Source of the DNA: Patescibacteria group bacterium
GTDB lineage: Bacteria; Bacillota; UBA4882; JAAYXC01
Direction: 5' to 3'
Assembly: GCA_050260175.1 (NCBI GenBank)
Contig: JBLNBS010000070.1
Span: 3,379 to 67,378 of the forward strand
DNA length: 64,000 bases
The position numbers and the translations under genes are program-made. This document shows, piece after piece, positions 5,391 to 54,015 of the stretch. Numbering within the stretch: the stretch's first letter is position 1; every line of letters begins with the position of its first letter. The notes beneath the pieces were generated by a model. It did no database searches and was not told where the DNA came from. It saw only the letters and a list, made by a program, of their open reading frames with translations.

Positions 5391-5466
5391 GGGCCATTAG
5401 CTCAGTTGGCAGAGCACCTGACTTTTAATCAGGGAGTCTGGCGTTCGAGTCGCCAATGGCCCACCA
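5391..5466 (+). tRNA. tRNA-Lys (anticodon TTT), including CCA
   Basis: Cloverleaf: acceptor GGGCCAT/ATGGCCC, D arm GCTC..GAGC, anticodon loop CTTTTAA, T arm TGGCG-TTCGAGT-CGCCA, 3' CCA. Confidence 0.85.
5417..5466. repeat. attL core: 50-bp tRNA-Lys 3' segment duplicated at 19425-19474
   Basis: The 50-bp sequence CCTGACTTTTAATCAGGGAGTCTGGCGTTCGAGTCGCCAATGGCCCACCA occurs here and again 14 kb downstream. Confidence 0.7.
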
Positions 5467-5479
5467 GGATAAATGCCCG

Positions 5480-6742
5480 TCAGGACTGAATTCCTGCCGG
5501 GCTTTCTTTTTGTCCATCGGCGCCTACTGTATCCTTTGTGTATCCATTCCAAAGGGTATCCATAAAGGCGCCCATCCCCGCCGCCGCAGCCTCGTCCCGG
5601 CCCGGGAACAGGTGCCCATAAACCCCTAACGTCACGTGGATCGATGCGTGGCCCATGCGGTATTGCAAGGTCTTGGGGTCCACGCCTTGGGCGATCAGGA
5701 TCGCCGCGTGCGTGTGCCGCAAGGTATGCAAGCTTACCCCTTCGAGTCCGGCGGCCGAGGTTACTGCGGCCAGGTCCCGCCGCAGAACGTTCCTCTTCCT
5801 GAGCGGCCCGCCGTCCTCATCGGTGAAGACCAGATCCCATTCATTCCTCCACGGCGGCCAGTCCGGCACGTGCCGGCGCATGGCCGTTCTTCGTTCCCTG
5901 CGTTCGATGGCGGCCTGCTTCTCCGCGTCTTGGCGTTCCTTCTGCCGCGCCAAGGCGGCCATGCCCATGGGAGACAAGGTGATCGTCCGGCGGCCGGCGC
6001 CGGTCTTCACCGGGCTGATCGATATTTGACCCGTCGCCGAATCCTCGATGATGGCCTGCCGGACGGTGGCTTTCGACCCTTCCCAATCGATGGCGGACCA
6101 AGCTAAACCGCGCAGTTCCCCGGAACGCATCCCGCTGTCCAGGCCGAGCAGGAACAGATCCTCGAGCCTGGCCCCCCGGGCGGCGTCGAGGAACCGGCGC
6201 AGCTCGTCCGGTACGAGAAAGCGCGCTTCCTTGTGGGAGTAAGTCCGCTTTGCCGCCAAGCGGGCTGGGTTCCGCGCGATCAGCCCCTTGGCCAGGGCAT
6301 CGTCGAAGGCGGCCCGCAGGACAAGGGCGGCAAGGGCGACAGTCCGCGGGGAGAGCCCGGCCTCGTCCAGTTCGGCAAAGAGGGCGTTGATCCGTCGATA
6401 GTCCACCGCCGCCAGCTGAAGCCCGCCGAAGTAAGGCCGGATATATCGTTCATAGGTTTCCGTGTAGCTTGACAGGGTGGAAGGCCTGACTTCGGCTTTC
6501 TTCGCGCGCAGCCAGTCCCGGAAATGATGCTCGACCGTGATCCGCCCGACCTGGACCGGGGCGCCCTTCAACGCGTCGCCCTGCACGGTGCGCAGTTTCT
6601 CCAAGGCTTCGGTCTTGGTCCGGCCGTAGACTCGCCGGCGGATCCGCTTCCCGTTGGCGTCAAAGCCAAACGAGGCCTGAGCGTACCAAAGGCCGGACTT
6701 CAACCGGCCCACAGAACCTTCACCGCGGCCACGCCTTGGCAT
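5480..6742 (-). CDS. int: Tyrosine-type site-specific integrase
   Basis: N-terminal MPRRGRGEGS...GKRIRRRVYGRTKTEALEKL is typical of phage integrases. C-terminal catalytic region HTLRHTHAAIL...HASIHVTLGVYGHL carries the R..H..R..Y residues. RBS AAGGGAGG precedes the ATG at 6742. Confidence 0.85.
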   Translation of the reverse strand: MPRRGRGEGSVGRLKSGLWYAQASFGFDANGKRIRRRVYGRTKTEALEKLRTVQGDALKGAPVQVGRITVEHHFRDWLRAKKAEVRPSTLSSYTETYERYIRPYFGGLQLAAVDYRRINALFAELDEAGLSPRTVALAALVLRAAFDDALAKGLIARNPARLAAKRTYSHKEARFLVPDELRRFLDAARGARLEDLFLLGLDSGMRSGELRGLAWSAIDWEGSKATVRQAIIEDSATGQISISPVKTGAGRRTITLSPMGMAALARQKERQDAEKQAAIERRERRTAMRRHVPDWPPWRNEWDLVFTDEDGGPLRKRNVLRRDLAAVTSAAGLEGVSLHTLRHTHAAILIAQGVDPKTLQYRMGHASIHVTLGVYGHLFPGRDEAAAAGMGAFMDTLWNGYTKDTVGADGQKESPAGIQS

Positions 6743-6918
6743 TATGTCGCCTCCCTTGAATGGCCTCAAGATCGCTACGATCATATCAGGACGGGCTGGC
6801 ACAAACAAGGGCGAAGAACGAAAAGCGCGCCATCACAGCATTTGAAGGCGCCGACGACCGGATCATTGACCCGTGGTCGGGGCTAGATTTACGATAGGAC
6901 GCGAAAGGGGGCGCAGGA

Positions 6919-9841: not shown

Positions 9842-9996
9842 AAAAATCGCGCTGGTTCTGCTCATCCTGCTGATTGTGTGGCTTTTCAGGTCCCCCCGTG
9901 GGCGCCTGGTCACAGGAAGGCTAATCTACTGGGTGGCTTGGAACATCGGTTGGGCGGTTGAGCTTGTAAAATTGATTATTTTTGGGGGCGCTAAGG

Positions 9997-12552
9997 ATGG
10001 CGCTGCTGGGCAAACTCGCCGTCGCCGTAGTCGGTGACATCAACCAGCTCAAAACCTCTTTCCGCGAGGTCAAGAGAGAGTCCCAGTCTTTGGGGAGAGA
10101 GGTTCAGAAGTCCGGTCTGGGCCTTCAGCAGATCGCCAAGTATGGCACGATGGCCGGCGCGGCGATCGTATCGGCCATGGGCGCCATGACCATCGCCACT
10201 ACCAAGAGCGCGGAGGAGATCGATCTCCTCAGCAAAAGGACGGGCGTATCCCGCGAGGAACTGCAGGGCCTTGCCTACGCAGCCCAGCAAGAGGGCACGG
10301 ACATACAGAGCCTCGGAACGGCCCTGGCCCGGCTTTCGCAAAACATGTACGACGCGAGCCAGGGGACCGGCGAGGCGCGTAAGGCTTTCAAAGACTTCGG
10401 CATCGTTGTCACGGATGGACAGGGGCGCCTCCGGTCTTCTGCAGACGTGCTCATGGACCTGGCCGATCGCATGAGGGGTATGACCAACGAGACCGAGATG
10501 TCTGCCCTGGCCATGAAAGTACTTGGCCGTGGCGCGCAGGATTTGGTACCGTTCCTCCGTATGGGCCGGGCGGAGATCGAACGGCTCATCGAGGAGGCGC
10601 GACGGCTCGGATACGTCATCGGTGAAGAGGCAACAAAACAGCTCGAGGCCCTGGGGGACGAGCTTGACGCCATTAAAATAGGTTTTGCCGGGTTCGGTAG
10701 GCAAATCTCGGCGGACCTTGTGCCAGTTAATCTTGCCTTCGCCCGCGGCCTCAAGGAGATTTTGATGTGGATTCATGCGATCCCTGCGCCGATTCGCAAG
10801 CTGGTGACGGTCGGCTCCCTATTGGCAGGGACAATCGCCCTGATTGGGGGCGCCCTGTCGTTACTGGTTGTCAAAGCCGCAGCGGCCCGCGCGGCCTTGC
10901 TGGCTTTGGGCACATCGTTTGGGCCATTCCTTATTGGCGGAGCCGTCGTTGTCGGTATCGGAGCAGCCGTCAGTTTGATCGGTGAAATCGCCCAGCGTGT
11001 CAAAGTGATAAAAGGCGATCTCGACGATATGTCACGCAATACACTAGAAGCCGAACTCATCAAATGGGAAGCCAGGCTGAAAAAGGCGCGAGAAGAATTA
11101 CGAAAAACAGAAAAGATGGTCGGGCAAAAATATGATCCCAAGAAAAATACTGACATGTTGGGGCCGTTATATATCGGTGGTATTCTTGATGAAATTGAAG
11201 TCGCCAATAAAGCAGTCGCTAATCTCAAAAAGAGATTGAAAGAACTTGGCGAGGAAGAGCCTGCGGCTGGCACAGAGAAATGGTCCCTGACCGAAACCCT
11301 CGCCAAAGCCAAGAAAGAGCTTGCCGACATCGACAAGATAGCTGATGCCTTCGGCGACAAGAGCCAGGTAGCCGCCGACAAGATAGCCGTGCTCAAGCGC
11401 GTCATCGTTGACCTGATCGAGCATGGATATGACCCGACAAAGACCAGCCTGGGGAATCTCATCGCCATGTACCAGGCATATGCCGAGGCCTCCCAGGCCG
11501 CCACCGACGCCAAGGAGCGGGAAAAGAAGGCGACCGATCTCCTCACGCAAGCCCAGCAGGCACTCAACGGGGAGACCTACCAAGATATCTCCGCACTGGA
11601 GACCCTGCGCGCACAGCTTGAGGCGCAGGCAGCCGTGGATACGGAACGCGCCGATTCTCTCAGGGCGGCGGCCGCAGCCCTGAACGTCCTGATCCTATCT
11701 CTGCGCCAAGCGACCCAGGACGAGCAGAACGCCGCGGAAGCGACGGAACTCCTTGCCCAGGGGCAAGCCAAGCTGGCGGAGATGACCGGCCAAGCGATCC
11801 CGGAGTGGGAGACGTTCGCCCAGAAGCTCGAGGAGGCCGCCGCGGAGTCCGGCGTCCTGCCGGAGACGGCCGAGGCCCTGCGCGACCTGGCCGCGGCGAT
11901 CCGCGAGGCGGGCCTGGCCACCGTGGAGATCGAACCCTATGATTTCGAAACCGCCTTCATCGCCGGCCTGCGGGACACGGCCAAGGAGTGGAAGGACTTC
12001 CTGGACCACGTGCGCGGGGGCGCGGCGGACTTGGCACAGACCATGAACCAGACCCTCAACGACTTCTTCTTTGACGGTGTGACCGCTCAGCTCAAGAACC
12101 TGGGCGACTATGCCCAGCAGGTATTCAACTCCATCGCCCGCAGTTTCGCCAATATGCTCTCGGACATGTTAATGAACTGGCTGATGAGCGGCTTCACCAA
12201 CATATTTGGCGGCGGGTTCTTTGGTGGCGGGCCGGTTGGTATGCCCTGGCCGTCTTATATCGGTACCATGGCCGAGGGTGGGACCGTGGCGGCGCGGGCG
12301 GCCTACCTCGTGGGCGAACGCGGGCCTGAGTTATTCGTCCCGCAGCAGTCCGGGACCATCATCCCCAATGACGAGATCGGCAGTCTCTCCCCTAAAGTTA
12401 CAGTCAACCTGATTAATCAGTCCGGCACTCCCCTGCAGGTAACGGACCGCAGAACCGAGGTTGACGGCGAGCAGGTAGTCGCCACACTCTGGCTTGGCGC
12501 CTACTCGAAGAACAAGGGCGGCCTGCAGGACGTTCTTGGCGGGGGGCGATAA
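9997..12552 (+). CDS. Phage tail tape-measure protein (TP901-family-like)
   Basis: 852 aa, highly helical. The N-terminal core TGVSREELQGLAYAAQQEGTDIQSLGTALARL...FKDFGIVVTDGQGRLRS resembles tape-measure cores. Central hydrophobic segments and a long coiled coil follow. The C-terminus carries the conserved GERGPELFVP motif. Confidence 0.65.
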   Translation: MALLGKLAVAVVGDINQLKTSFREVKRESQSLGREVQKSGLGLQQIAKYGTMAGAAIVSAMGAMTIATTKSAEEIDLLSKRTGVSREELQGLAYAAQQEGTDIQSLGTALARLSQNMYDASQGTGEARKAFKDFGIVVTDGQGRLRSSADVLMDLADRMRGMTNETEMSALAMKVLGRGAQDLVPFLRMGRAEIERLIEEARRLGYVIGEEATKQLEALGDELDAIKIGFAGFGRQISADLVPVNLAFARGLKEILMWIHAIPAPIRKLVTVGSLLAGTIALIGGALSLLVVKAAAARAALLALGTSFGPFLIGGAVVVGIGAAVSLIGEIAQRVKVIKGDLDDMSRNTLEAELIKWEARLKKAREELRKTEKMVGQKYDPKKNTDMLGPLYIGGILDEIEVANKAVANLKKRLKELGEEEPAAGTEKWSLTETLAKAKKELADIDKIADAFGDKSQVAADKIAVLKRVIVDLIEHGYDPTKTSLGNLIAMYQAYAEASQAATDAKEREKKATDLLTQAQQALNGETYQDISALETLRAQLEAQAAVDTERADSLRAAAAALNVLILSLRQATQDEQNAAEATELLAQGQAKLAEMTGQAIPEWETFAQKLEEAAAESGVLPETAEALRDLAAAIREAGLATVEIEPYDFETAFIAGLRDTAKEWKDFLDHVRGGAADLAQTMNQTLNDFFFDGVTAQLKNLGDYAQQVFNSIARSFANMLSDMLMNWLMSGFTNIFGGGFFGGGPVGMPWPSYIGTMAEGGTVAARAAYLVGERGPELFVPQQSGTIIPNDEIGSLSPKVTVNLINQSGTPLQVTDRRTEVDGEQVVATLWLGAYSKNKGGLQDVLGGGR

Positions 12553-12554
12553 CG

Positions 12555-13325
12555 ATGCCGGCTTTTATTGAACCGCTGCCGCGCGGTACGGGGAACGCTG
12601 TGGTGGTTTGCCACAAAGCGCGATGGGCTCTCGTCCAGGATGACGAATTAAGGCGAAACATTCTCCTCCTCGCGCGGGAGTTTTTCCCGCTGGAGCATTG
12701 GCTTGCCCTGCGAGAAGGCGACCGCCTGGTTTATTGGCGCGTTGATGATCGATACCATCCCGGTAAAAACTTGGCCCTGGACGCGACTTGGTCGGCCACC
12801 GCGCCAACGCTACCAACGAACCCCGAAGACAGGCACGCGGTACGGCTGGGGCGAATTGTTGGCGTCCTCCCGGATCGGAGGCTTTGCTTCATCAGGGACT
12901 TGGCAACAGGCAGGGAGATCCTTTGCCACGCGCGGGCCGTTATACCCGCCAGTGATTGGTCTATGCTGACGGTAGGGACTCTGGTGTCTTTTTGCGCCGA
13001 TTACGATCGGCTCCATCCAGGTCTTTTCCGCGCCGTTGTTGTTCAGCGTGGCAATGCAGAGGAAATTCACGCCGGCCTCCCCGGGGTTCTCGTGGCCGCC
13101 GCCGATCCCCCGGTCGAGGACGGCCAGAAGGCCACAAAAAGCGAAGAGACCACCAGTGCCGCCGGTGTTGGCGGCGGCTGTGGCATAGAACCCGGGTTCC
13201 GCTGGAGAGCGGACCTGCCGCGGCCTGTTGGAGAGCAGGGAAACGGCCTTGCCGAACTACCACGAGGCCACCGCGCAAGAGTTGGAGAACCCTTGCCGCG
13301 GGCGTTGGAGAACGCGGCCGGATGA
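12555..13325 (+). CDS. Hypothetical protein; the 3' extent is uncertain
   Basis: Start codon overlaps the tape-measure stop (ATAACGATG). No recognisable domain. The C-terminal half is compositionally odd. Confidence 0.3.
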   Translation: MPAFIEPLPRGTGNAVVVCHKARWALVQDDELRRNILLLAREFFPLEHWLALREGDRLVYWRVDDRYHPGKNLALDATWSATAPTLPTNPEDRHAVRLGRIVGVLPDRRLCFIRDLATGREILCHARAVIPASDWSMLTVGTLVSFCADYDRLHPGLFRAVVVQRGNAEEIHAGLPGVLVAAADPPVEDGQKATKSEETTSAAGVGGGCGIEPGFRWRADLPRPVGEQGNGLAELPRGHRARVGEPLPRALENAAG

Positions 13326-13379
13326 ACGGACGGCAGGAGGGTGAATGGAACCCCAAAAACAGGAAAGGGAGTGTCACGG

Positions 13380-14642
13380 ATGACACCTGATGAGATTCGG
13401 GCTGCGATCGCGGAAAAGGGCGAGCAGAAACGCGCGTTACTCAGGCGGATTGACAAAGCCCCCGTGGAGGAACTTAGAGCGATCAATATCGGCCTGGAAA
13501 ACCTGAACGCGGAAATCGCCGATTTGCAGCAGCAATTGGCCGAAAGCGAAGCCCAGCGGACGCCTGGCGGCCCTGTGGGTCGGATGCAGATCTTGGGTAC
13601 CTATGGAATCCACCCCGCCGCCGGCAACGTCGCGGGCACGGGCGCCATGCGGGAAGAGTTCCGCGCGGCCCTCGAGGAAAAAGGCAAGGCGCTTCTCGAG
13701 CGGCGCGCGGTGATCTTTACACCCGAGGAGATCGCGGAAGCACGGTCCATCACAATCGCTACTACCGGGATCGTAACAGGCAAGGCCGTCGATCCGACGA
13801 TCGCCCCCGCGCCCCAGCAGGTGAGCGCGCTGATCGACATGGTAGACGCGCCGACGATGATTGGTGCCGAATCGTTTGCCAAGCCGTTCCTGGTCAGCGT
13901 AGGGGAGGGCGATTACACCGGCGAAGGTTTAGACGCCGCGGAAGCGGAACCGACCTTTGGATCGGTTACGATTCAAAAGGCGAAAGTGACCGCGTATGCC
14001 GAATTTTCCGAGGAAATGCGCAAACTGTCGCCGATTGACTACGCCGTGGCCATCATCGGCGGGGTTCGGGAAGCCGTGCGAAAAAAACTCGGCCGGCAGA
14101 TCGTTGTCGGCTCCGGTGGTGTCAATGCCCTCGTTGGCATCTATAACGCCCCGGAGGCCGTCATCCCGGCCGCGTCGGACCTGGAGATTGGGACCGTCGA
14201 TTCGGAGACACTCAACAAGTTAATTTTCGGCTTCGGCGGAGATGAGGCCGTGGAAGGCGAAGAGGCCGTCCTGATCCTGAACAAGCTGGACCTCAAAGCC
14301 CTCGCGGATCTTTATGGAAACGATGGTCGAAACCTTTACGACATCCAATATGCCGGCGCTACTGGGTTTATCACTAACCGCGGGGGCGGCGGGATGAAGA
14401 TTCGGTACGTCATCAACGGCGCATGCGGCGTTCTGAGCGACCCGGCTACAGTCGCAGGTGCCAAAACCATGTTGTTCGGCTATGCCAAGGCCTATACCCT
14501 GTGTCAGTTCAGCGGCCTCGAGGTCCAAGAGTCATCCGAGTACCTCTTCAAGAAGGGCATGATTGCAGTGCGGGCCGTTGCGATGGTTGGCGGTAACACG
14601 GCGCGGTACAAGGGTTTCGTCCGTGTCAAGAAAGCGGCCTAG
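13380..14642 (+). CDS. HK97-fold major capsid protein-like protein with an N-terminal coiled-coil delta domain
   Basis: About 420 aa. The first ~100 aa are coiled coil (scaffold-like delta domain). The C-terminal part has the glycine-rich, beta-rich pattern of HK97-family capsid proteins (GFGGDEAVEGEEAVLILNK...ITNRGGGGMKIRYV...). AAGGGAG RBS precedes the start. Confidence 0.5.
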   Translation: MTPDEIRAAIAEKGEQKRALLRRIDKAPVEELRAINIGLENLNAEIADLQQQLAESEAQRTPGGPVGRMQILGTYGIHPAAGNVAGTGAMREEFRAALEEKGKALLERRAVIFTPEEIAEARSITIATTGIVTGKAVDPTIAPAPQQVSALIDMVDAPTMIGAESFAKPFLVSVGEGDYTGEGLDAAEAEPTFGSVTIQKAKVTAYAEFSEEMRKLSPIDYAVAIIGGVREAVRKKLGRQIVVGSGGVNALVGIYNAPEAVIPAASDLEIGTVDSETLNKLIFGFGGDEAVEGEEAVLILNKLDLKALADLYGNDGRNLYDIQYAGATGFITNRGGGGMKIRYVINGACGVLSDPATVAGAKTMLFGYAKAYTLCQFSGLEVQESSEYLFKKGMIAVRAVAMVGGNTARYKGFVRVKKAA

Positions 14643-14795: not shown

Positions 14796-15407
14796 ATGGA
14801 CCGCTACTTCGTTGACAAGGATGGCTATGTGTACAGATACGATGGGGAATTAGAGCGGCCAGATCCCGAGATCACGGAGGCACTTGCCGAGATCACCCTG
14901 GCCCGCCATCAACGGTTCCCTTTCCCCCTGCCCGCCGACTGGCCGCGGTTTAGAGCCTTCATTACCTCTAGCGGTGAGGTGTACGTTGCCGAAGCGCCAC
15001 GCAACGAAGCAGATAAGGACATCTCCTGCCGGCTGCCAAAGTACCACGTATCACCGACGTACATCACTCCGTCTGGCGATTGCTATAACGGCGACAGGCA
15101 GAGCGAAGAGGACATCGAAGTTCCTCCCAAGCCTCCTTTCCATAGGTGGGATGGCCAGAAATGGGCCTTCGACATTGAGGTGTACCGTCAGGAGTATCTG
15201 CGGCCCCGGCGTAATGCCCTGTTGGCCGCGACCGATTGGACGGACCTACCTTCCGCTCCGCTTACGGCGGAACAGAAGGCGGCCTGGCAAACTTACCGGC
15301 AGGCTCTACGGGATCTCCCCGAAAAGACCACAAGTGCCGAAGTGGCCTGGCCGGAGATGCCGATGAAAATCCAAACCCTACCTGATTTAGGAGGTCTGAT
15401 AGCATGA
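14796..15407 (+). CDS. Phage tail fibre assembly (Tfa)-like protein
   Basis: The C-terminal motif NALLAATDWTDLPSAPLTAEQKAAWQTYRQALRDLP...WPEMP matches the conserved Tfa/gpG C-terminus (W..YR..L......WP..P). RBS AGAGGAG precedes the start. Confidence 0.45.
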   Translation: MDRYFVDKDGYVYRYDGELERPDPEITEALAEITLARHQRFPFPLPADWPRFRAFITSSGEVYVAEAPRNEADKDISCRLPKYHVSPTYITPSGDCYNGDRQSEEDIEVPPKPPFHRWDGQKWAFDIEVYRQEYLRPRRNALLAATDWTDLPSAPLTAEQKAAWQTYRQALRDLPEKTTSAEVAWPEMPMKIQTLPDLGGLIA

Positions 15408-16213
15408 GCGGCGCCATCAAAGTTTCCGGCGCGACGTTTCTCCATTTATGTTATCATCCCACTATCCACGAGTCTCAGCCCGTCGAACACCTGGGCGTGA
15501 AGCCGTGGGCCATAGGACGGTCATACGAGTTCGGAAAGACCGCCAATCCGCACAAAAAATTCATTGATTCGCGGCTCTTTGGTATTAAGAATCCCCACAC
15601 AGGGAACATTCATTTTTTGAATCACTTAATACAAGAGATATATTCATTTGGGAAAACAGGTCAAAAAGACTCCGTGATATCCACTTTTTACCACTATGAC
15701 CCGCTTATCGCATTCCATGAGGCTAATGTTTTAATTTATGAACTGCTCTATATCATCCGCGAACAAATCTTTGAGGAGGTCAGGCGGGAGCGGTTCCCTT
15801 CGCTTCCTTCCAGGGAAACATGCCTCTTCGCCTTGAATGACAGCGAGAAAGATCTTGATTATTGGATAAACAATCTGCTTGGCGGCCGGGCAGCGGCCGA
15901 AGGTAAAGAATCCTTCCCGGTTACCCTGGTTAAAATCAGGTTCACCGGGAAGGTGTTCAAAACAAACCGCTTGACCGGTGTGTTTCTGCCGCTGGTTTCT
16001 GCGGGTCCGGATTATTGGCGCGAACAAGCGGGCAAGTACTGGTCGGGATCCGTCCCAGACTCACCAGACGCGGAAGAGGTTCTTCTTGGGGAAGGCGTAG
16101 GCGTGGTCGAATCTATTTCTCCGATCGAGTGGCGCGTGGATCCTGTGCAGTTCAGTACGGCGCGAAAGGCCGAACTGGTCCAGACTACCTTGGTCCCGGC
16201 GGCAGGAGGTTGA
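15404..16213 (+). CDS. Hypothetical protein in a low-GC island (cargo/moron candidate)
   Basis: The 5' two-thirds is markedly AT-richer than its surroundings. The start overlaps the upstream stop (ATGA). No family recognised. Confidence 0.45.
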   Translation: MSGAIKVSGATFLHLCYHPTIHESQPVEHLGVKPWAIGRSYEFGKTANPHKKFIDSRLFGIKNPHTGNIHFLNHLIQEIYSFGKTGQKDSVISTFYHYDPLIAFHEANVLIYELLYIIREQIFEEVRRERFPSLPSRETCLFALNDSEKDLDYWINNLLGGRAAAEGKESFPVTLVKIRFTGKVFKTNRLTGVFLPLVSAGPDYWREQAGKYWSGSVPDSPDAEEVLLGEGVGVVESISPIEWRVDPVQFSTARKAELVQTTLVPAAGG

Positions 16214-16291
16214 TTCCAGATTAACTACATACGCTGCGCCAATCCGAACTGCTCCACCCTGTTTGACTCCCGGTGCGGCTCTGTTTGTTCA

Positions 16292-17209
16292 GTGTGCCGT
16301 GCGGCCCAGGCGGCGGGGAAGCTGCCCTTAGAATTTCCCAAGATTGAGCCAGCCGCTACAGTCACTCCCGCAGGATCGGGAAGTCTCGTCACATATTTCC
16401 CGGTGCACCATGGTTCCCTGGGCGTCCAGATACGAGGCGCGGAATATTCATGGGTTCGCTATACTTCGGGGTTCTCCGCGCCGCCCGACGTGGTGGACCT
16501 TTGCACGGTCTACCATACGTGGTCCCTTGTCGGGATGAGTTATCATCAATGGGGCAGGATTATTGTTCGACCCAAGTCCTATGTTGGGCTTTATTCGACC
16601 CCCCGATGTCACAACGATCTATTTGATGATTTTCACGCCATAACAAGAGTGGATCTCGAAATGATGGAGAAATGGGGCCGAGAAAACAATTCGTTATTTG
16701 ATTGGCGGTTGTCTTCTTCGAATCCACCAAATGGACGCGGACCTAAACAATTTGGCGAAAACGCGATTATTCCGATTTGTATTGCCCAAATACCCGAAGG
16801 TTTCCTCAAGGTTTTTTATGGCGGTGTTCATTCGTTTGGGTTGAACTGGGAATTCTCACCCGATGGTAGATTCAGCAGCAATACGGAACCTCCAACTGCG
16901 GAAGACAGCAAAATGCTGTATGAACGCGCGTTCCGGATCAAGGCCGCGAAAATGCTCTGGTTGACTGATTGGACTACCCGGGCTGATGCACCGCTGACGG
17001 AAGAGAAACGCGCAGCCTGGGACGCATACCGCGCGGCTCTTTACTGCCCAGACGAGATCCTTTCGGGTGCCCGGGAGATGCCGCGGATGCCGGCAGGCCG
17101 GGTCCTTAATCCGAGGTGGGACTCAGCACCGATGGAAATCTGTTGGGACACCTGGTGGAAGTTCAGGGAGCCGGCTGGCAACGCAGGTGATTTTCCCTTG
17201 GCTGAGTGA
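16292..17209 (+). CDS. Hypothetical protein with a Tfa-like C-terminal motif; possible Cys-rich N-terminal extension from 16214
   Basis: C-terminus AAKMLWLTDWTTRADAPLTEEKRAAWDAYRAAL repeats the motif of the 14796 gene. The in-frame upstream stretch encodes RCANPNCSTLFDSRCGSVCSVC. Confidence 0.4.
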   Translation: MCRAAQAAGKLPLEFPKIEPAATVTPAGSGSLVTYFPVHHGSLGVQIRGAEYSWVRYTSGFSAPPDVVDLCTVYHTWSLVGMSYHQWGRIIVRPKSYVGLYSTPRCHNDLFDDFHAITRVDLEMMEKWGRENNSLFDWRLSSSNPPNGRGPKQFGENAIIPICIAQIPEGFLKVFYGGVHSFGLNWEFSPDGRFSSNTEPPTAEDSKMLYERAFRIKAAKMLWLTDWTTRADAPLTEEKRAAWDAYRAALYCPDEILSGAREMPRMPAGRVLNPRWDSAPMEICWDTWWKFREPAGNAGDFPLAE

Positions 17210-17247: not shown

Positions 17248-17703
17248 ATGGCCGCGAGAACGCCGGGTGATCTCCTGCTGAGTTACGATGAGATCCGGCT
17301 GGTCTATAACACCCTGGCCGGCGTCCCGAACAAGTCTTTGCCCGCGGCTGAACTCCTGGGCAAGCTCTATCGGGCCATCGTGGTCCGGGCATCCCAGGAA
17401 GAGCGGGCGGAATTGGCCGCGCGGATCCGTGCCGGCGTGAACTATGCCGGCCGGCTGTGCCCGGAGTGCGGCCGGGGCCTCGAGAAGATCGCCGGCCAAG
17501 ATGCCTATGGCTGTCCCAAATGCGGCGGCGAGTGGTGGCCGGCGGACTCGAACGAGGCGCCGATGTCGGCGGCGGCCTTGTGGCAGGACGAGCAGCGGGT
17601 GAAGCGAGCCCTGATCGACCCGAACTCCCACGGCGGCGGCAAAAAGGGAGGTCGGCGTCAAAAGCAAAAGAAGCCGCCGCCAGTGCCCTGGTACCAAAGA
17701 TGA
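17248..17703 (+). CDS. Zinc-ribbon protein (CPECG...CPKCG) with a basic C-terminal tail
   Basis: Cys pairs spaced for a zinc ribbon, with a Lys/Arg-rich C-terminus. Confidence 0.4.
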   Translation: MAARTPGDLLLSYDEIRLVYNTLAGVPNKSLPAAELLGKLYRAIVVRASQEERAELAARIRAGVNYAGRLCPECGRGLEKIAGQDAYGCPKCGGEWWPADSNEAPMSAAALWQDEQRVKRALIDPNSHGGGKKGGRRQKQKKPPPVPWYQR

Positions 17704-17961: not shown

Positions 17962-18340
17962 GCGGAATAATTCGCCCTACTGACTGCTTCTCCTCCATCC
18001 CCGAAAGTGGGGTGGACGCCGAACAGGTCAGGGCGGGCGGCGGGGACCAGGACGAGGGGAGGGTACTTTTACGTCCAGCCCTCAATATCCCGTCCTGGGG
18101 CATCCTGAGGCCTCGTTTTTGGGCCGATGCCCGCCCGGCGTAGGTTTGGAGACTGTAGCGCCTCTCTTGCGGAATACCCCGAACTGTTATAAGCTTGATC
18201 AGAGGCCGTGGATCGGTAGTTTGCGGCTCCCCATCCGCGCCTCCGGCCCGGGGCTTAACCGCCCCGGGCTTTTGCGGGTTACGGGTATAAAAAACCCCCA
18301 CGGGGAGATCCCGAAGGGGTTTATAGCCAATGAGGACAAC

Positions 18341-19424: not shown

Positions 19425-19474
19425 CCTGACTTTTAATCAGGGAGTCTGGCGTTCGAGTCGCCAATGGCCCACCA
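19425..19474. repeat. attR: 50-bp copy of the tRNA-Lys 3' end
   Basis: Identical to 5417-5466. It lacks the 5' 26 nt of the tRNA. Confidence 0.7.
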
Positions 19475-19482
19475 GCTTTAAG

Positions 19483-51580: not shown

Positions 51581-53725
51581 GTGACGACGTACGAATACGA
51601 CGCCCTTGGGCGGCAGACGGGACTGAAAGATGCCAAATACAATGCCGGTCAAACCACGGCCCAGACCGTCATGGCCTATGACTCCCTGGGCAGGCTGCTC
51701 GACAAGACCGACCCCTACGCCGGTCACACGACCTATCAATACGATCTCGTCGGCAACGTGATCGCCAAGACCGACGCCAAGGGGAGCAAGCTGATCTACG
51801 CCTACGACGCCTTGAACCGCCTGGTCAGCAAATCCGTTTTGCGCCCGGGTGAATCGGTGCCGGTCGTTCTTTCCACGCTGGTTTACGACGAGACGACGCG
51901 TACTTTTGGCATCGGCCGGTTGACCAGCACCTATCTGGGCTCGTCCACCCAGGACGGTGAGTACGATTATGACGCCGAGGGCAACCCAACCTACACCACG
52001 AAGTATATCGACGGTACGGCCTATATCACCCGGGTGGAGACCGATCCCCTGGGCAGGATGACCCGCCTGACCTATCCGGATGGCTCCATCGTCGACTACA
52101 CATACGAGGCCGGGGCATTGAAAACCGTGGGTTCTTACGCCACTTACAGCAACTGGAACGCCGCCGGCCTGCCGCGGGATGTGGACTACGGCAACGACAC
52201 AGAAACGACCTATACTTATGATCCTCAAACACTGCGACTGGCCAACCTCGAAACCCGCGCCCCGGGAGGCACGGTGATCCAGTCCTACGCCTACAGCTTC
52301 GACCCCGTGGGCAACATCACAGCCATCACCGACAACGCGCCCATCACCTCGCTTCATACAATCAGTGTCAGCCAGAGCTTTACCTACGACGCCCTGAACC
52401 GCCTGACCGGCTCCAGCGTCTGGGGTTCCTATGCCTATGACGAGGTCGGCAACATCACCGCCAAGGAAGGCATAACATTCACCTACACCGACCCCGCGCA
52501 TCCCTACTGCCCGACCGGGGGCAGCAGCGGCTACCAGGCGAGCTACGATCCAAACGGCAACCTGGCGGAGAAGACGGACAAGAATGGCGTCCACTGGCGG
52601 TACGTATACGACGATGAAAACATGCTGATCCAGGTCTATAAGACACCGGCGGGAGGGTCCGAGGGTCTGGTCGAGGAATATACCTATGGAACGGATGGAC
52701 TAAGAAGCCGGAAGGTCAATCATGAGGGTGGCCAAGCGGTAAGCACATCCTACGTTTATCTCGGTTATAACGTCCTTTACGAAAAGACCGGGGAAACGGC
52801 CGCGCGGTACATCCTGGCCAATGACCGGGAGATCGCCAAAGTAGCCGGCAGTGAGACATACTACACGCACCGGGACCATCTGGGGTCGTCGTCTGTGGTA
52901 ACCAATGGGTCAGGTAGCGTTGTGGCCTGGAATGCCAATCACCCGTATGGCGATGAGTGGATCGTCGGACCGGGGGCGGATGTGGACCGGCATAGGTTCA
53001 CGGGTAAGGAGACAGATGCAGGAACTGGGTTGGTATATTTCGGGGCGAGGTATTATGATACGGAGATCGGGAGGTTTACGACAGTTGATCCAATACAAGA
53101 TGGATGGAATTGGTATGAGTATTGTCGATCAAATCCATTGACATATATAGATCAAAACGGCTTTTATCCCGCCATAGGTTCCAGCGCTCAAGAAGAACAA
53201 AAACTAAGAGGTAATGGATATACAGAAACTAAAACAAATCCGGATGGATCGATCACAACGACAACAACAATTTATCGTGGTTATTATGGTACAGATGTGA
53301 CCATTATCCAAGATAAAAGATCAAAATATTTTCCATTTGGCACAAGAATAGTTACTGAAGTTCATGCAACATTTAATATTATTGATACCAATCAAGAAGC
53401 ATATAATCTTAATCGATTAGATAATATATGCAATTGGTTTAAAGACGGATTGATGATCGTTGGCGGTTATGTTATAGCTGAACCGTTTGCGTTATTAGGG
53501 ATATTGAATTTCGCTGCCGATGCTTTTACTTCATTCGGTAGCGGCCAGCCTACTTATGAAAAAGGGGATGTTGTTTACGAGGTCAATGCTACAAGAGATT
53601 CTTATACCTTTCCATTCCTTCATACCTCACAGACTATGCAGTATATCATCATCGTGAAAAGCGATAAGGTATTGATTATAGAAATTACTAATAGCTTGAA
53701 TTATGGAGGCGGGTTTTATCAATGA
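51581..53725 (+). CDS. RHS/YD-repeat protein fragment (5'-truncated) with the RHS core and a low-GC C-terminal toxin domain
   Basis: YD repeats (YEYDALGRQ, YQYDLVGNV, YAYDALNRL and others) and the RHS core (YYTHRDHLGSS...RFTGKETD...ARYYDTEIGRFTTVDPIQ...NPLTYIDQNGF). The last ~190 aa drop sharply in GC. An in-frame stop at 51494 and the end of the upstream SpoIID gene at 51476 leave no room for an N-terminal domain. Confidence 0.75.
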   Translation: MTTYEYDALGRQTGLKDAKYNAGQTTAQTVMAYDSLGRLLDKTDPYAGHTTYQYDLVGNVIAKTDAKGSKLIYAYDALNRLVSKSVLRPGESVPVVLSTLVYDETTRTFGIGRLTSTYLGSSTQDGEYDYDAEGNPTYTTKYIDGTAYITRVETDPLGRMTRLTYPDGSIVDYTYEAGALKTVGSYATYSNWNAAGLPRDVDYGNDTETTYTYDPQTLRLANLETRAPGGTVIQSYAYSFDPVGNITAITDNAPITSLHTISVSQSFTYDALNRLTGSSVWGSYAYDEVGNITAKEGITFTYTDPAHPYCPTGGSSGYQASYDPNGNLAEKTDKNGVHWRYVYDDENMLIQVYKTPAGGSEGLVEEYTYGTDGLRSRKVNHEGGQAVSTSYVYLGYNVLYEKTGETAARYILANDREIAKVAGSETYYTHRDHLGSSSVVTNGSGSVVAWNANHPYGDEWIVGPGADVDRHRFTGKETDAGTGLVYFGARYYDTEIGRFTTVDPIQDGWNWYEYCRSNPLTYIDQNGFYPAIGSSAQEEQKLRGNGYTETKTNPDGSITTTTTIYRGYYGTDVTIIQDKRSKYFPFGTRIVTEVHATFNIIDTNQEAYNLNRLDNICNWFKDGLMIVGGYVIAEPFALLGILNFAADAFTSFGSGQPTYEKGDVVYEVNATRDSYTFPFLHTSQTMQYIIIVKSDKVLIIEITNSLNYGGGFYQ

Positions 53726-54015
53726 AAGTTGGTTTCGCGGCTTTTTTATGGTTATTATTTACATTTTTTGGATATTTTCTAAATACTAAGTTTATACTTC
53801 ATTATGAATCAAATTTATTACATATGATTTTTAAGATCAATAATAGATATTTATATAGATTTATTCAATCATTATGGCGCATGACGGTTGCAACAGGATT
53901 TTATTTGTTATTAATTTATAGTACTAAGTTATTTTATCGATATATTTACTTTGCTTTATTAAGTTTCACGCTTGGTTTATTATTAAGTAAAAAAACATTT
54001 ATGAAATGTCGGTGA
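53722..54015 (+). CDS. Putative RHS-toxin immunity protein (low-GC, membrane)
   Basis: Start overlaps the toxin stop (ATGA). Very AT-rich; three or four transmembrane helices. Confidence 0.4.
   Translation: MKVGFAAFLWLLFTFFGYFLNTKFILHYESNLLHMIFKINNRYLYRFIQSLWRMTVATGFYLLLIYSTKLFYRYIYFALLSFTLGLLLSKKTFMKCR

Follow-up and report, generated by a model that had tools for sequence, protein, structure and literature searches.

Tfa (tail-fibre assembly) proteins are modular chaperones in which, as described for Mu Tfa and Pam3 gp25, a variable N-terminal domain binds the client and a conserved helical C-terminal domain oligomerises (PMC9608196). Proteins of this type have been assumed to serve tail fibres only. 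DUF2441 proteins were placed in the ADP-ribosyltransferase (ART) clan of Pfam and in SCOP d.166.1.6 (PMC7955679, PMC3000352), and a ProFunc analysis of the one solved structure, 2AUA, gave a local active-site match to diphtheria toxin, exotoxin A and cholix toxin (PMC3024214), so that the family has a structure and a predicted toxin-like active site. The window analysed here is a 64-kb stretch of contig JBLNBS010000070.1; all positions are 1-based in this window, whose copy of a ~14-kb integrative island is used as the reference. Downstream of the capsid gene of this island, a Tfa-family gene (A) that has no fibre gene beside it overlaps a gene for a DUF2441 protein (B), and a third open reading frame (ORF C) follows. 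We tentatively read A as the dedicated partner of B, an ART-fold effector, in the conflict between phage, satellite and host, although our confidence in this reading is below even. If it is true, the A-B cassette could yield the first function for a DUF2441 protein and show a phage chaperone fold recruited for an enzyme.

A Tfa-type gene coupled to a DUF2441 gene

The block contains the following features.

14796-15407, + strand: gene A, Tfa-family protein of 203 aa with a strong Shine-Dalgarno AAGAGGAG (Pfam, PHROG)
15195-15362, + strand: helical C-terminal Tfa module of A, aa 134-189 (PF16778; PDB 2kz6; AlphaFold model, AF2; Foldseek)
15404-16213, + strand: gene B, DUF2441/BC2332-like protein of 269 aa, its start overlapping the stop of A (ATGA), with an AGGAGG Shine-Dalgarno (Pfam, PDB 2aua, AF2, Foldseek)
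15524-15763, + strand: AT-rich stretch of B, codons ~41-120, GC 0.33-0.44 and GC at third codon positions (GC3) 0.37-0.57, its position conserved in orthologues
16214-16291, + strand: spacer of 26 codons without a stop, in frame with B and C, with no Shine-Dalgarno before the first possible start of C
16292-17209, + strand: ORF C, at most 305 aa long, an orphan with an uncertain start (given by different pipelines as 305, 182 or 98 aa, or left uncalled)
16904-17095, + strand: degenerate Tfa-type module of C, aa ~205-268 (Pfam, BLASTP, our own hidden Markov model (HMM), hhalign)

Residues 134-189 of A match PF16778 (Phage_tail_APC) with an E value of 3e-18 and 65.7 bits, against a cut-off of 26.6, and the protein also matches tail-fibre-assembly families of PHROG. 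The module matches PDB entry 2kz6 with E 8e-13, the same entry is returned by Foldseek with a probability of 1.00, and residues 131-190 have a model confidence (pLDDT) of 89-97 in the AF2 model. All residues that are invariant in the module family, as judged from 59 members, are retained in A. The N-terminal domain (aa 1-~130) is present only in the three loci that carry A and B together, and nowhere else among the loci fetched. Ordinary homologues of the module directly follow fibre genes (e.g. at locus L039), unlike A, for which there is no fibre gene directly 5' either in the window or in the related locus L001. Scans of IMG/VR with A and with the capsid protein gave no match, and hairpins in the 153-nt gap between the capsid gene and A were not significant (z -1.2).

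Profile searches and structure prediction on 15404-16213, which the original prediction had proposed, were run and gave a clear assignment: B is a DUF2441/BC2332-like protein with a predicted diphtheria-toxin-type ADP-ribosyltransferase-superfamily fold. It matches PF10386 (DUF2441) with 44 bits (cut-off 25), as do all 42 of its aligned relatives, and its sole solved relative is BC2332 of Bacillus cereus (PDB 2aua), matched with E 9e-8 by sequence and 1e-21 by profile. The AF2 model, built from the 42 relatives, has a pLDDT of 82.7 and matches 2aua in Foldseek with E 7e-10, a probability of 1.00 and TM-scores of 0.52/0.68. The next Foldseek matches, a RES toxin (6gw6_A; E 0.32, probability 0.16) and the Tne2 NADase effector, are non-significant, and no RES domain was matched by Pfam, even at E 10, across the 42 relatives. 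The invariant residues of DUF2441 (E120, E124, R127, R137, G182, A209 and W213) are all kept in B, as are the near-invariant H14, S136 and E225, and R119 is likewise listed among the retained family residues.

An exhaustive HMMER search of 1.84 billion representative proteins returned 203 relatives of B, just two of them close. Searches with B of IMG/VR, GTDB genomes, JGI metagenomes and 50,697 phage genomes gave distant DUF2441 genes only and added no A-B locus to the three. In three representative proteins of the family, DUF2441 is joined to HD phosphohydrolase domains, which suggests that DUF2441 is an enzyme. These fusions occur in either order, and there is one weak fusion to HhH-GPD (set P0012, P0029, P0040 and P0014; loci L023 and L027-L030). 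In the same set of loci, marine Bacteroidota-type contigs have DUF2441 flanked by a C39-peptidase ABC exporter on one side and an outer-membrane efflux protein on the other.

Both close relatives of B, at loci L001 and L002, have a Tfa-type gene immediately upstream. One of these upstream genes had been called too short; its full reading frame is 203 aa and aligns with A over the whole length, at 48%. The ATGA overlap between the stop of A and the start of B, with its Shine-Dalgarno, is found in the window, in L001 and in L002, that is, in 3/3 known loci. The A orthologues are 48% and 42% identical to A of the window over their full length, and the B orthologues are 53% and 41-43% identical to its B; thus, A has diverged about as far as B. 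The capsid encoded upstream of A-B in L001 has no BLASTP similarity to that of the window, so either A-B has moved between different elements or the adjoining capsid gene was replaced. No Tfa-type neighbour was seen at the other DUF2441 loci fetched (>25 loci). Judged from gene order and overlap in these loci, A-B is shown to be a conserved, translationally coupled two-gene cassette and not a three-gene unit, and the cassette is probably mobile.

The specificity domain of A occurs only where B occurs, and translation of the two genes is coupled; most simply, then, B would be the client of A. The N-terminal domain of A would bind B in place of a tail fibre, and A would fold, hold or store, or restrain B, which would be an effector that uses NAD. 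Instead of building a tail fibre, the pair would be an accessory conflict module of the satellite-like island, either of a toxin-partner or abortive-infection type or for manipulation of the helper phage. A more specific version, which we consider doubtful, is that the Tfa scaffold has been re-used such that A stores the ART-fold protein B until a phage structural protein, competing for A, releases or aims it, which would make A-B a new two-component conflict module of capsid-encoding satellites. A mechanism in which the Tfa module acts as a fibre-tip sensor had been the lead and was dropped, since in the published assignment the module oligomerises and it is the N-terminal domain that binds the client (PMC9608196).

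ORF C and the low-GC stretch of B

The original prediction described A and C as carrying related Tfa-type modules, with B as a recently acquired low-GC gene between them. The relationship of the modules was confirmed: A and C align in BLASTP with 38% identity over 64 aa (E 4e-9) and in hhalign with a probability of 96.6% (E 6e-10), and our own Tfa HMM gave E 1.5e-9. The match of C to PF16778 itself (aa 221-250, E 6e-5) has 23.3 bits and lies below the cut-off of 26.6. The homology of A and C is restricted to the module, ~60 residues. Both proteins bear the string DW...W..YR.AL...P, as had been noted, but the claim that it marks the end of both is only partly correct, as the module of C is followed by 38 more residues. 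About half of the residues that are invariant in the 59 family members are lost in C, where QALRDLP is replaced by AALYCPD and WP..P by MPRMP. Since the C-terminal module is an oligomerisation domain in the published work on Tfa, A and C would share an oligomerisation handle and not a specificity element.

The proposal of a three-gene functional module did not hold for C. This frame finds only its own sequence among 5.8 billion proteins and nothing in IMG/VR, and L002 lacks it, the gene after B there lying on the reverse strand. A Shine-Dalgarno is seen at 0/17 of its in-frame starts, whereas A, B and the downstream zinc-ribbon gene have strong ones. By our own estimate the chance of such an open frame, given this composition, is ~1e-6, and the first 110 codons have a coding-like GC3; a frame so far beyond chance length and of coding-like GC3 indicates that C is a real gene, or was one recently. 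Most likely, C is a lineage-specific second gene of Tfa architecture, decaying or newly arisen and of doubtful expression. Its N-terminal part was compared with DUF2441, as a possible decayed copy, and with the N-terminal domain of A, and is related to neither. B and C also share a reading frame, one TGA (16211-16291 region) breaking an open frame of 601 codons. Read-through from B into C was considered and rejected, because the chance of an accidental common frame is ~0.1, the stop position of B is conserved in protein P0003 and no supporting signal was found; the common frame is probably coincidental.

The low GC content of B is real but less exceptional than had been claimed. Its minimum of 0.42 in 300-nt windows is the lowest of the island (mean 0.588, standard deviation 0.056), but only marginally so, because other dips are nearly as low: 0.44 in the tape-measure-like gene (10918-11068), 0.44 in C (16518-16668) and 0.45 at 18268-18318. 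The stretch also covers codons ~41-120 and not the 5' two-thirds of the gene. The trough in GC and GC3 lies at the same codons of B in 3/3 orthologues (GC 0.33-0.44, 0.39-0.43 and 0.31-0.40), and as these share 41-53% protein identity, at which synonymous sites are saturated, it is a maintained or ancestral feature and not the scar of a recent transfer. A comparison of related elements had been suggested to show whether the slot is variable; A-B is kept in three loci, C is not, and the dip recurs in all B orthologues.

Consequently, the idea that B alone is a moron of low GC that recently entered a variable cargo slot flanked by two Tfa paralogues is largely refuted and we consider it very improbable. 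It is true that B has the lowest GC window and that DUF2441 elsewhere is often a lone gene at a prophage end beside an integrase, but A and B travel together, with the ATGA overlap, in two other metagenomic loci, the dip is shared by the three orthologues, and C has a low-GC3 stretch of its own that is unrelated. The usual heuristic is corrected here, in that a local drop in GC dates far back in the history of the gene and gives no evidence of recent acquisition. The persistence of low GC3 at 15524-15763 in L001 and L002 may point to selection acting on the nucleotide sequence itself, such as for translation pacing or an internal signal. The single sigma-70-like match of the block (15617-15644) falls within this AT-rich stretch. 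Promoter and terminator signals in the block, and nucleotide repeats between the modules of A and C, did not rise above chance.

The surrounding island

The boundaries and other main genes of the island are as follows.

5391-5466: tRNA-Lys
5417-5467, no strand: attL (left attachment site), left copy of a 51-bp exact direct repeat, corresponding to the 3' part of tRNA-Lys (exact-repeat search)
5480-6808, - strand: tyrosine integrase of the island (PF00589, E 5e-21; phrog_1, E 3e-72)
9982-12552: tape-measure-like protein (PhageMin_Tail and many PHROG tape-measure matches)
13341-14642, + strand: HK97-type major capsid protein, directly upstream of the A-B-C block (PF05065, E 7e-27; phrog_10, E 9e-34)
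17248-17703, + strand: zinc-ribbon protein of 151 aa with a basic tail, the next gene 3' of ORF C (zinc-ribbon matches weak)
19425-19475, no strand: attR, right copy of the 51-bp repeat, bounding the island (exact-repeat search)

The ~14-kb island lies between the two exact copies of the repeat. It also encodes an HTH_17 protein, a weakly RepO-like protein and, between the tape-measure-like and capsid genes, a 256-aa protein of no assigned family. After the capsid gene the order is A, B, C and the zinc-ribbon gene, followed by further small helix-turn-helix (HTH) genes. Scans with Pfam and PHROG found no match to portal, terminase or tail-tube families among the larger ORFs of the island, and 0/10 of these ORFs matched tail-fibre families, in agreement with the earlier statement that the element has no tail fibre gene. 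With an integrase, att repeats at a tRNA gene and a part but not all of the virion genes, the island has the features typical of satellites. Because no portal, terminase, tail-tube or tail-fibre match was found among the larger ORFs scanned, its gene set resembles that of a phage satellite or of a prophage that has been strongly reduced. The description of the block as uncharacterised and situated in the accessory end of a satellite-like island also stands. For a satellite, a tape-measure-like gene and the 256-aa gene 5' of the capsid gene, with no portal, terminase or tail-tube match (9982-13325), are an odd set.

The island sequence recurs, 100% identical, in one genome assembled from a metagenome (MAG) at NCBI and in contigs of a single project, from three of its runs. 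The source metagenomes are SRR24035584, SRR24035586 and SRR24035588. Two contigs, L003 and L004, come from two samples and both end at window position 18247, and L003 begins at 5439, inside the att repeat. The shared break and the start inside the repeat suggest that the right arm of the island varies within the population or that an excised form was assembled. The zinc-ribbon protein (17248-17703) gives weak PADLOC matches to the zinc-finger region of Cas12f/Cas12u (E 1e-4 to 1.5e-3), which probably reflect merely the CxxC...CxxC ribbon.

Two observations concern the window as a whole. Its GC content is 62-72%, with large multi-domain genes, and the closest A-B relative is in a Bacillota MAG; the NCBI label 'Patescibacteria group bacterium' looks doubtful. 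At 51581-54015 the window encodes a 714-aa RHS/YD-repeat protein, the last ~200 codons of which have a GC of 0.27-0.38 compared with ~0.6 upstream, and an overlapping ORF of 97 aa, hydrophobic and of similarly low GC, follows. By composition and gene order, the 3' end of the RHS gene and this ORF have the look of an exchanged Rhs toxin tip followed by its immunity gene.

Possible roles of the pair and comparison with known systems

Several observations weigh against the proposal that A is the partner of an effector B in a phage-satellite-host conflict. Scans of A, B and C gave no defence match in PADLOC-DB 2.0 at E 0.1 and no match in NCBIfam. The N-terminal domain of A, which would carry the specificity, was modelled by AF2 with low confidence (pLDDT 38-68); the model has some strands and matched no known fold, the client-binding domain of Mu Tfa and Pam3 gp25 being an N-terminal beta-sandwich. 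Unlike classical antitoxins, A has no match to an HTH or ribbon-helix-helix (RHH) DNA-binding domain in Pfam or NCBIfam. To our knowledge, no DUF2441 protein has a known enzymatic activity. Elsewhere DUF2441 genes mostly stand alone, at prophage ends beside integrases, or in other operons without an obvious partner, which speaks against the family being, as a rule, toxins that require an antidote. The known A-B loci number three, two of them on short contigs. Finally, a fibre of the helper phage, supplied in trans, is a possible client of A.

This last point leads to the main competing explanation, which we think unlikely: A, and perhaps C, would be a working fibre chaperone or tip adhesin that acts in trans on helper-phage fibres and alters or secures host recognition, B being unrelated and merely co-transcribed. 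Some Tfa proteins, such as those of Mu and gp38 of T4, remain on the fibre tip. The module of A holds every family-invariant residue, the chaperone of Phage C48C1 aligns with residues 55-189 of A, and an island with capsid and tape-measure-like genes and no fibre must borrow a tail. However, a role on fibres alone leaves the ATGA overlap in 3/3 loci, the similar divergence of A and B and their joint presence beside unrelated capsids unexplained, and the client-binding domain of A is found just where B is present. The block might instead be the relic of the tail-fibre region of a degraded prophage, in which the fibre was lost and the Tfa genes and a moron remain with no current joint function. 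ORF C has the appearance of such a remnant, being an orphan with inconsistent calls, no Shine-Dalgarno and lost motif residues, and the order of the island is unorthodox, with a tape-measure-like gene 5' of the capsid and no portal or terminase match. We nevertheless judge a relic quite improbable, as A and B are intact, have strong ribosome-binding sites and are conserved as a pair at 41-53% identity in three loci, and the 51-bp att repeats of the island are perfect copies and its integrase is intact.

To a similarly low degree we credit the idea that A-B is a plain addiction module, akin to type II toxin-antitoxin systems, in which A would neutralise B and so stabilise the island, with no role for phages. 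An upstream partner overlapping an ART-fold gene is reminiscent of Xre-RES and ParST, and the weak second-best Foldseek matches of B are the RES toxin 6gw6_A (E 0.32) and Tne2. Type II antitoxins are small and DNA-binding, whereas A has 203 aa, lacks HTH and RHH matches and belongs to a phage chaperone family; moreover, the similarity of B to RES is not significant (probability 0.16) and many DUF2441 genes have no partner.

Among known systems, the Tfa chaperones (phage Mu Tfa and cyanophage Pam3 gp25; PF16778, PF02413) share with A the two-part build of a variable N-terminal domain and a conserved helical C-terminal module, of which C has the module only. A differs from them in having no fibre gene upstream or in the island, in that the gene overlapping it downstream encodes a protein of enzyme fold, and in an N-terminal domain without a detectable relative outside the three A-B loci. 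Its fold match is to the structural-genomics protein 2kz6 only, and not to a characterised Tfa of solved structure. B agrees with BC2332 (2AUA) by sequence, profile, fold and conserved residues, but the identity is 22% and the clade of B has an extra N-terminal and insert region (aa ~50-110). A TNR-L/I-TGVF..PLV insert also separates B from the short viral DUF2441 forms, which lack it.

Xre-RES and ParS-ParT resemble A-B in having an upstream partner gene coupled to a gene for an ART-superfamily protein, the RES toxin being the next-best, non-significant fold match of B, but A is not a DNA-binding antitoxin and B is not a RES-domain protein by sequence. CmdTAC is a defence system with a chaperone-dependent ADP-ribosyltransferase toxin that is triggered by a phage capsid protein. 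A-B would share with it the idea of an ART-type effector that a chaperone-type protein holds in check and that a phage structural protein may trigger; A-B has no SecB-like chaperone, third gene or PADLOC match, and the chaperone family of A is of phage origin. Phage satellites such as P4 and the phage-inducible chromosomal islands (PICIs) carry accessory hot spots, including defence genes. The block likewise is found past the last structural gene and before the att end of a small island that has an integrase and is inserted in a tRNA gene, although with so few relatives variability of the slot is not demonstrable, and the one comparable locus keeps A-B beside a different capsid. Both domain families, Tfa and DUF2441, are already catalogued, and what is new compared with these systems is the fibre-less Tfa-DUF2441 arrangement.

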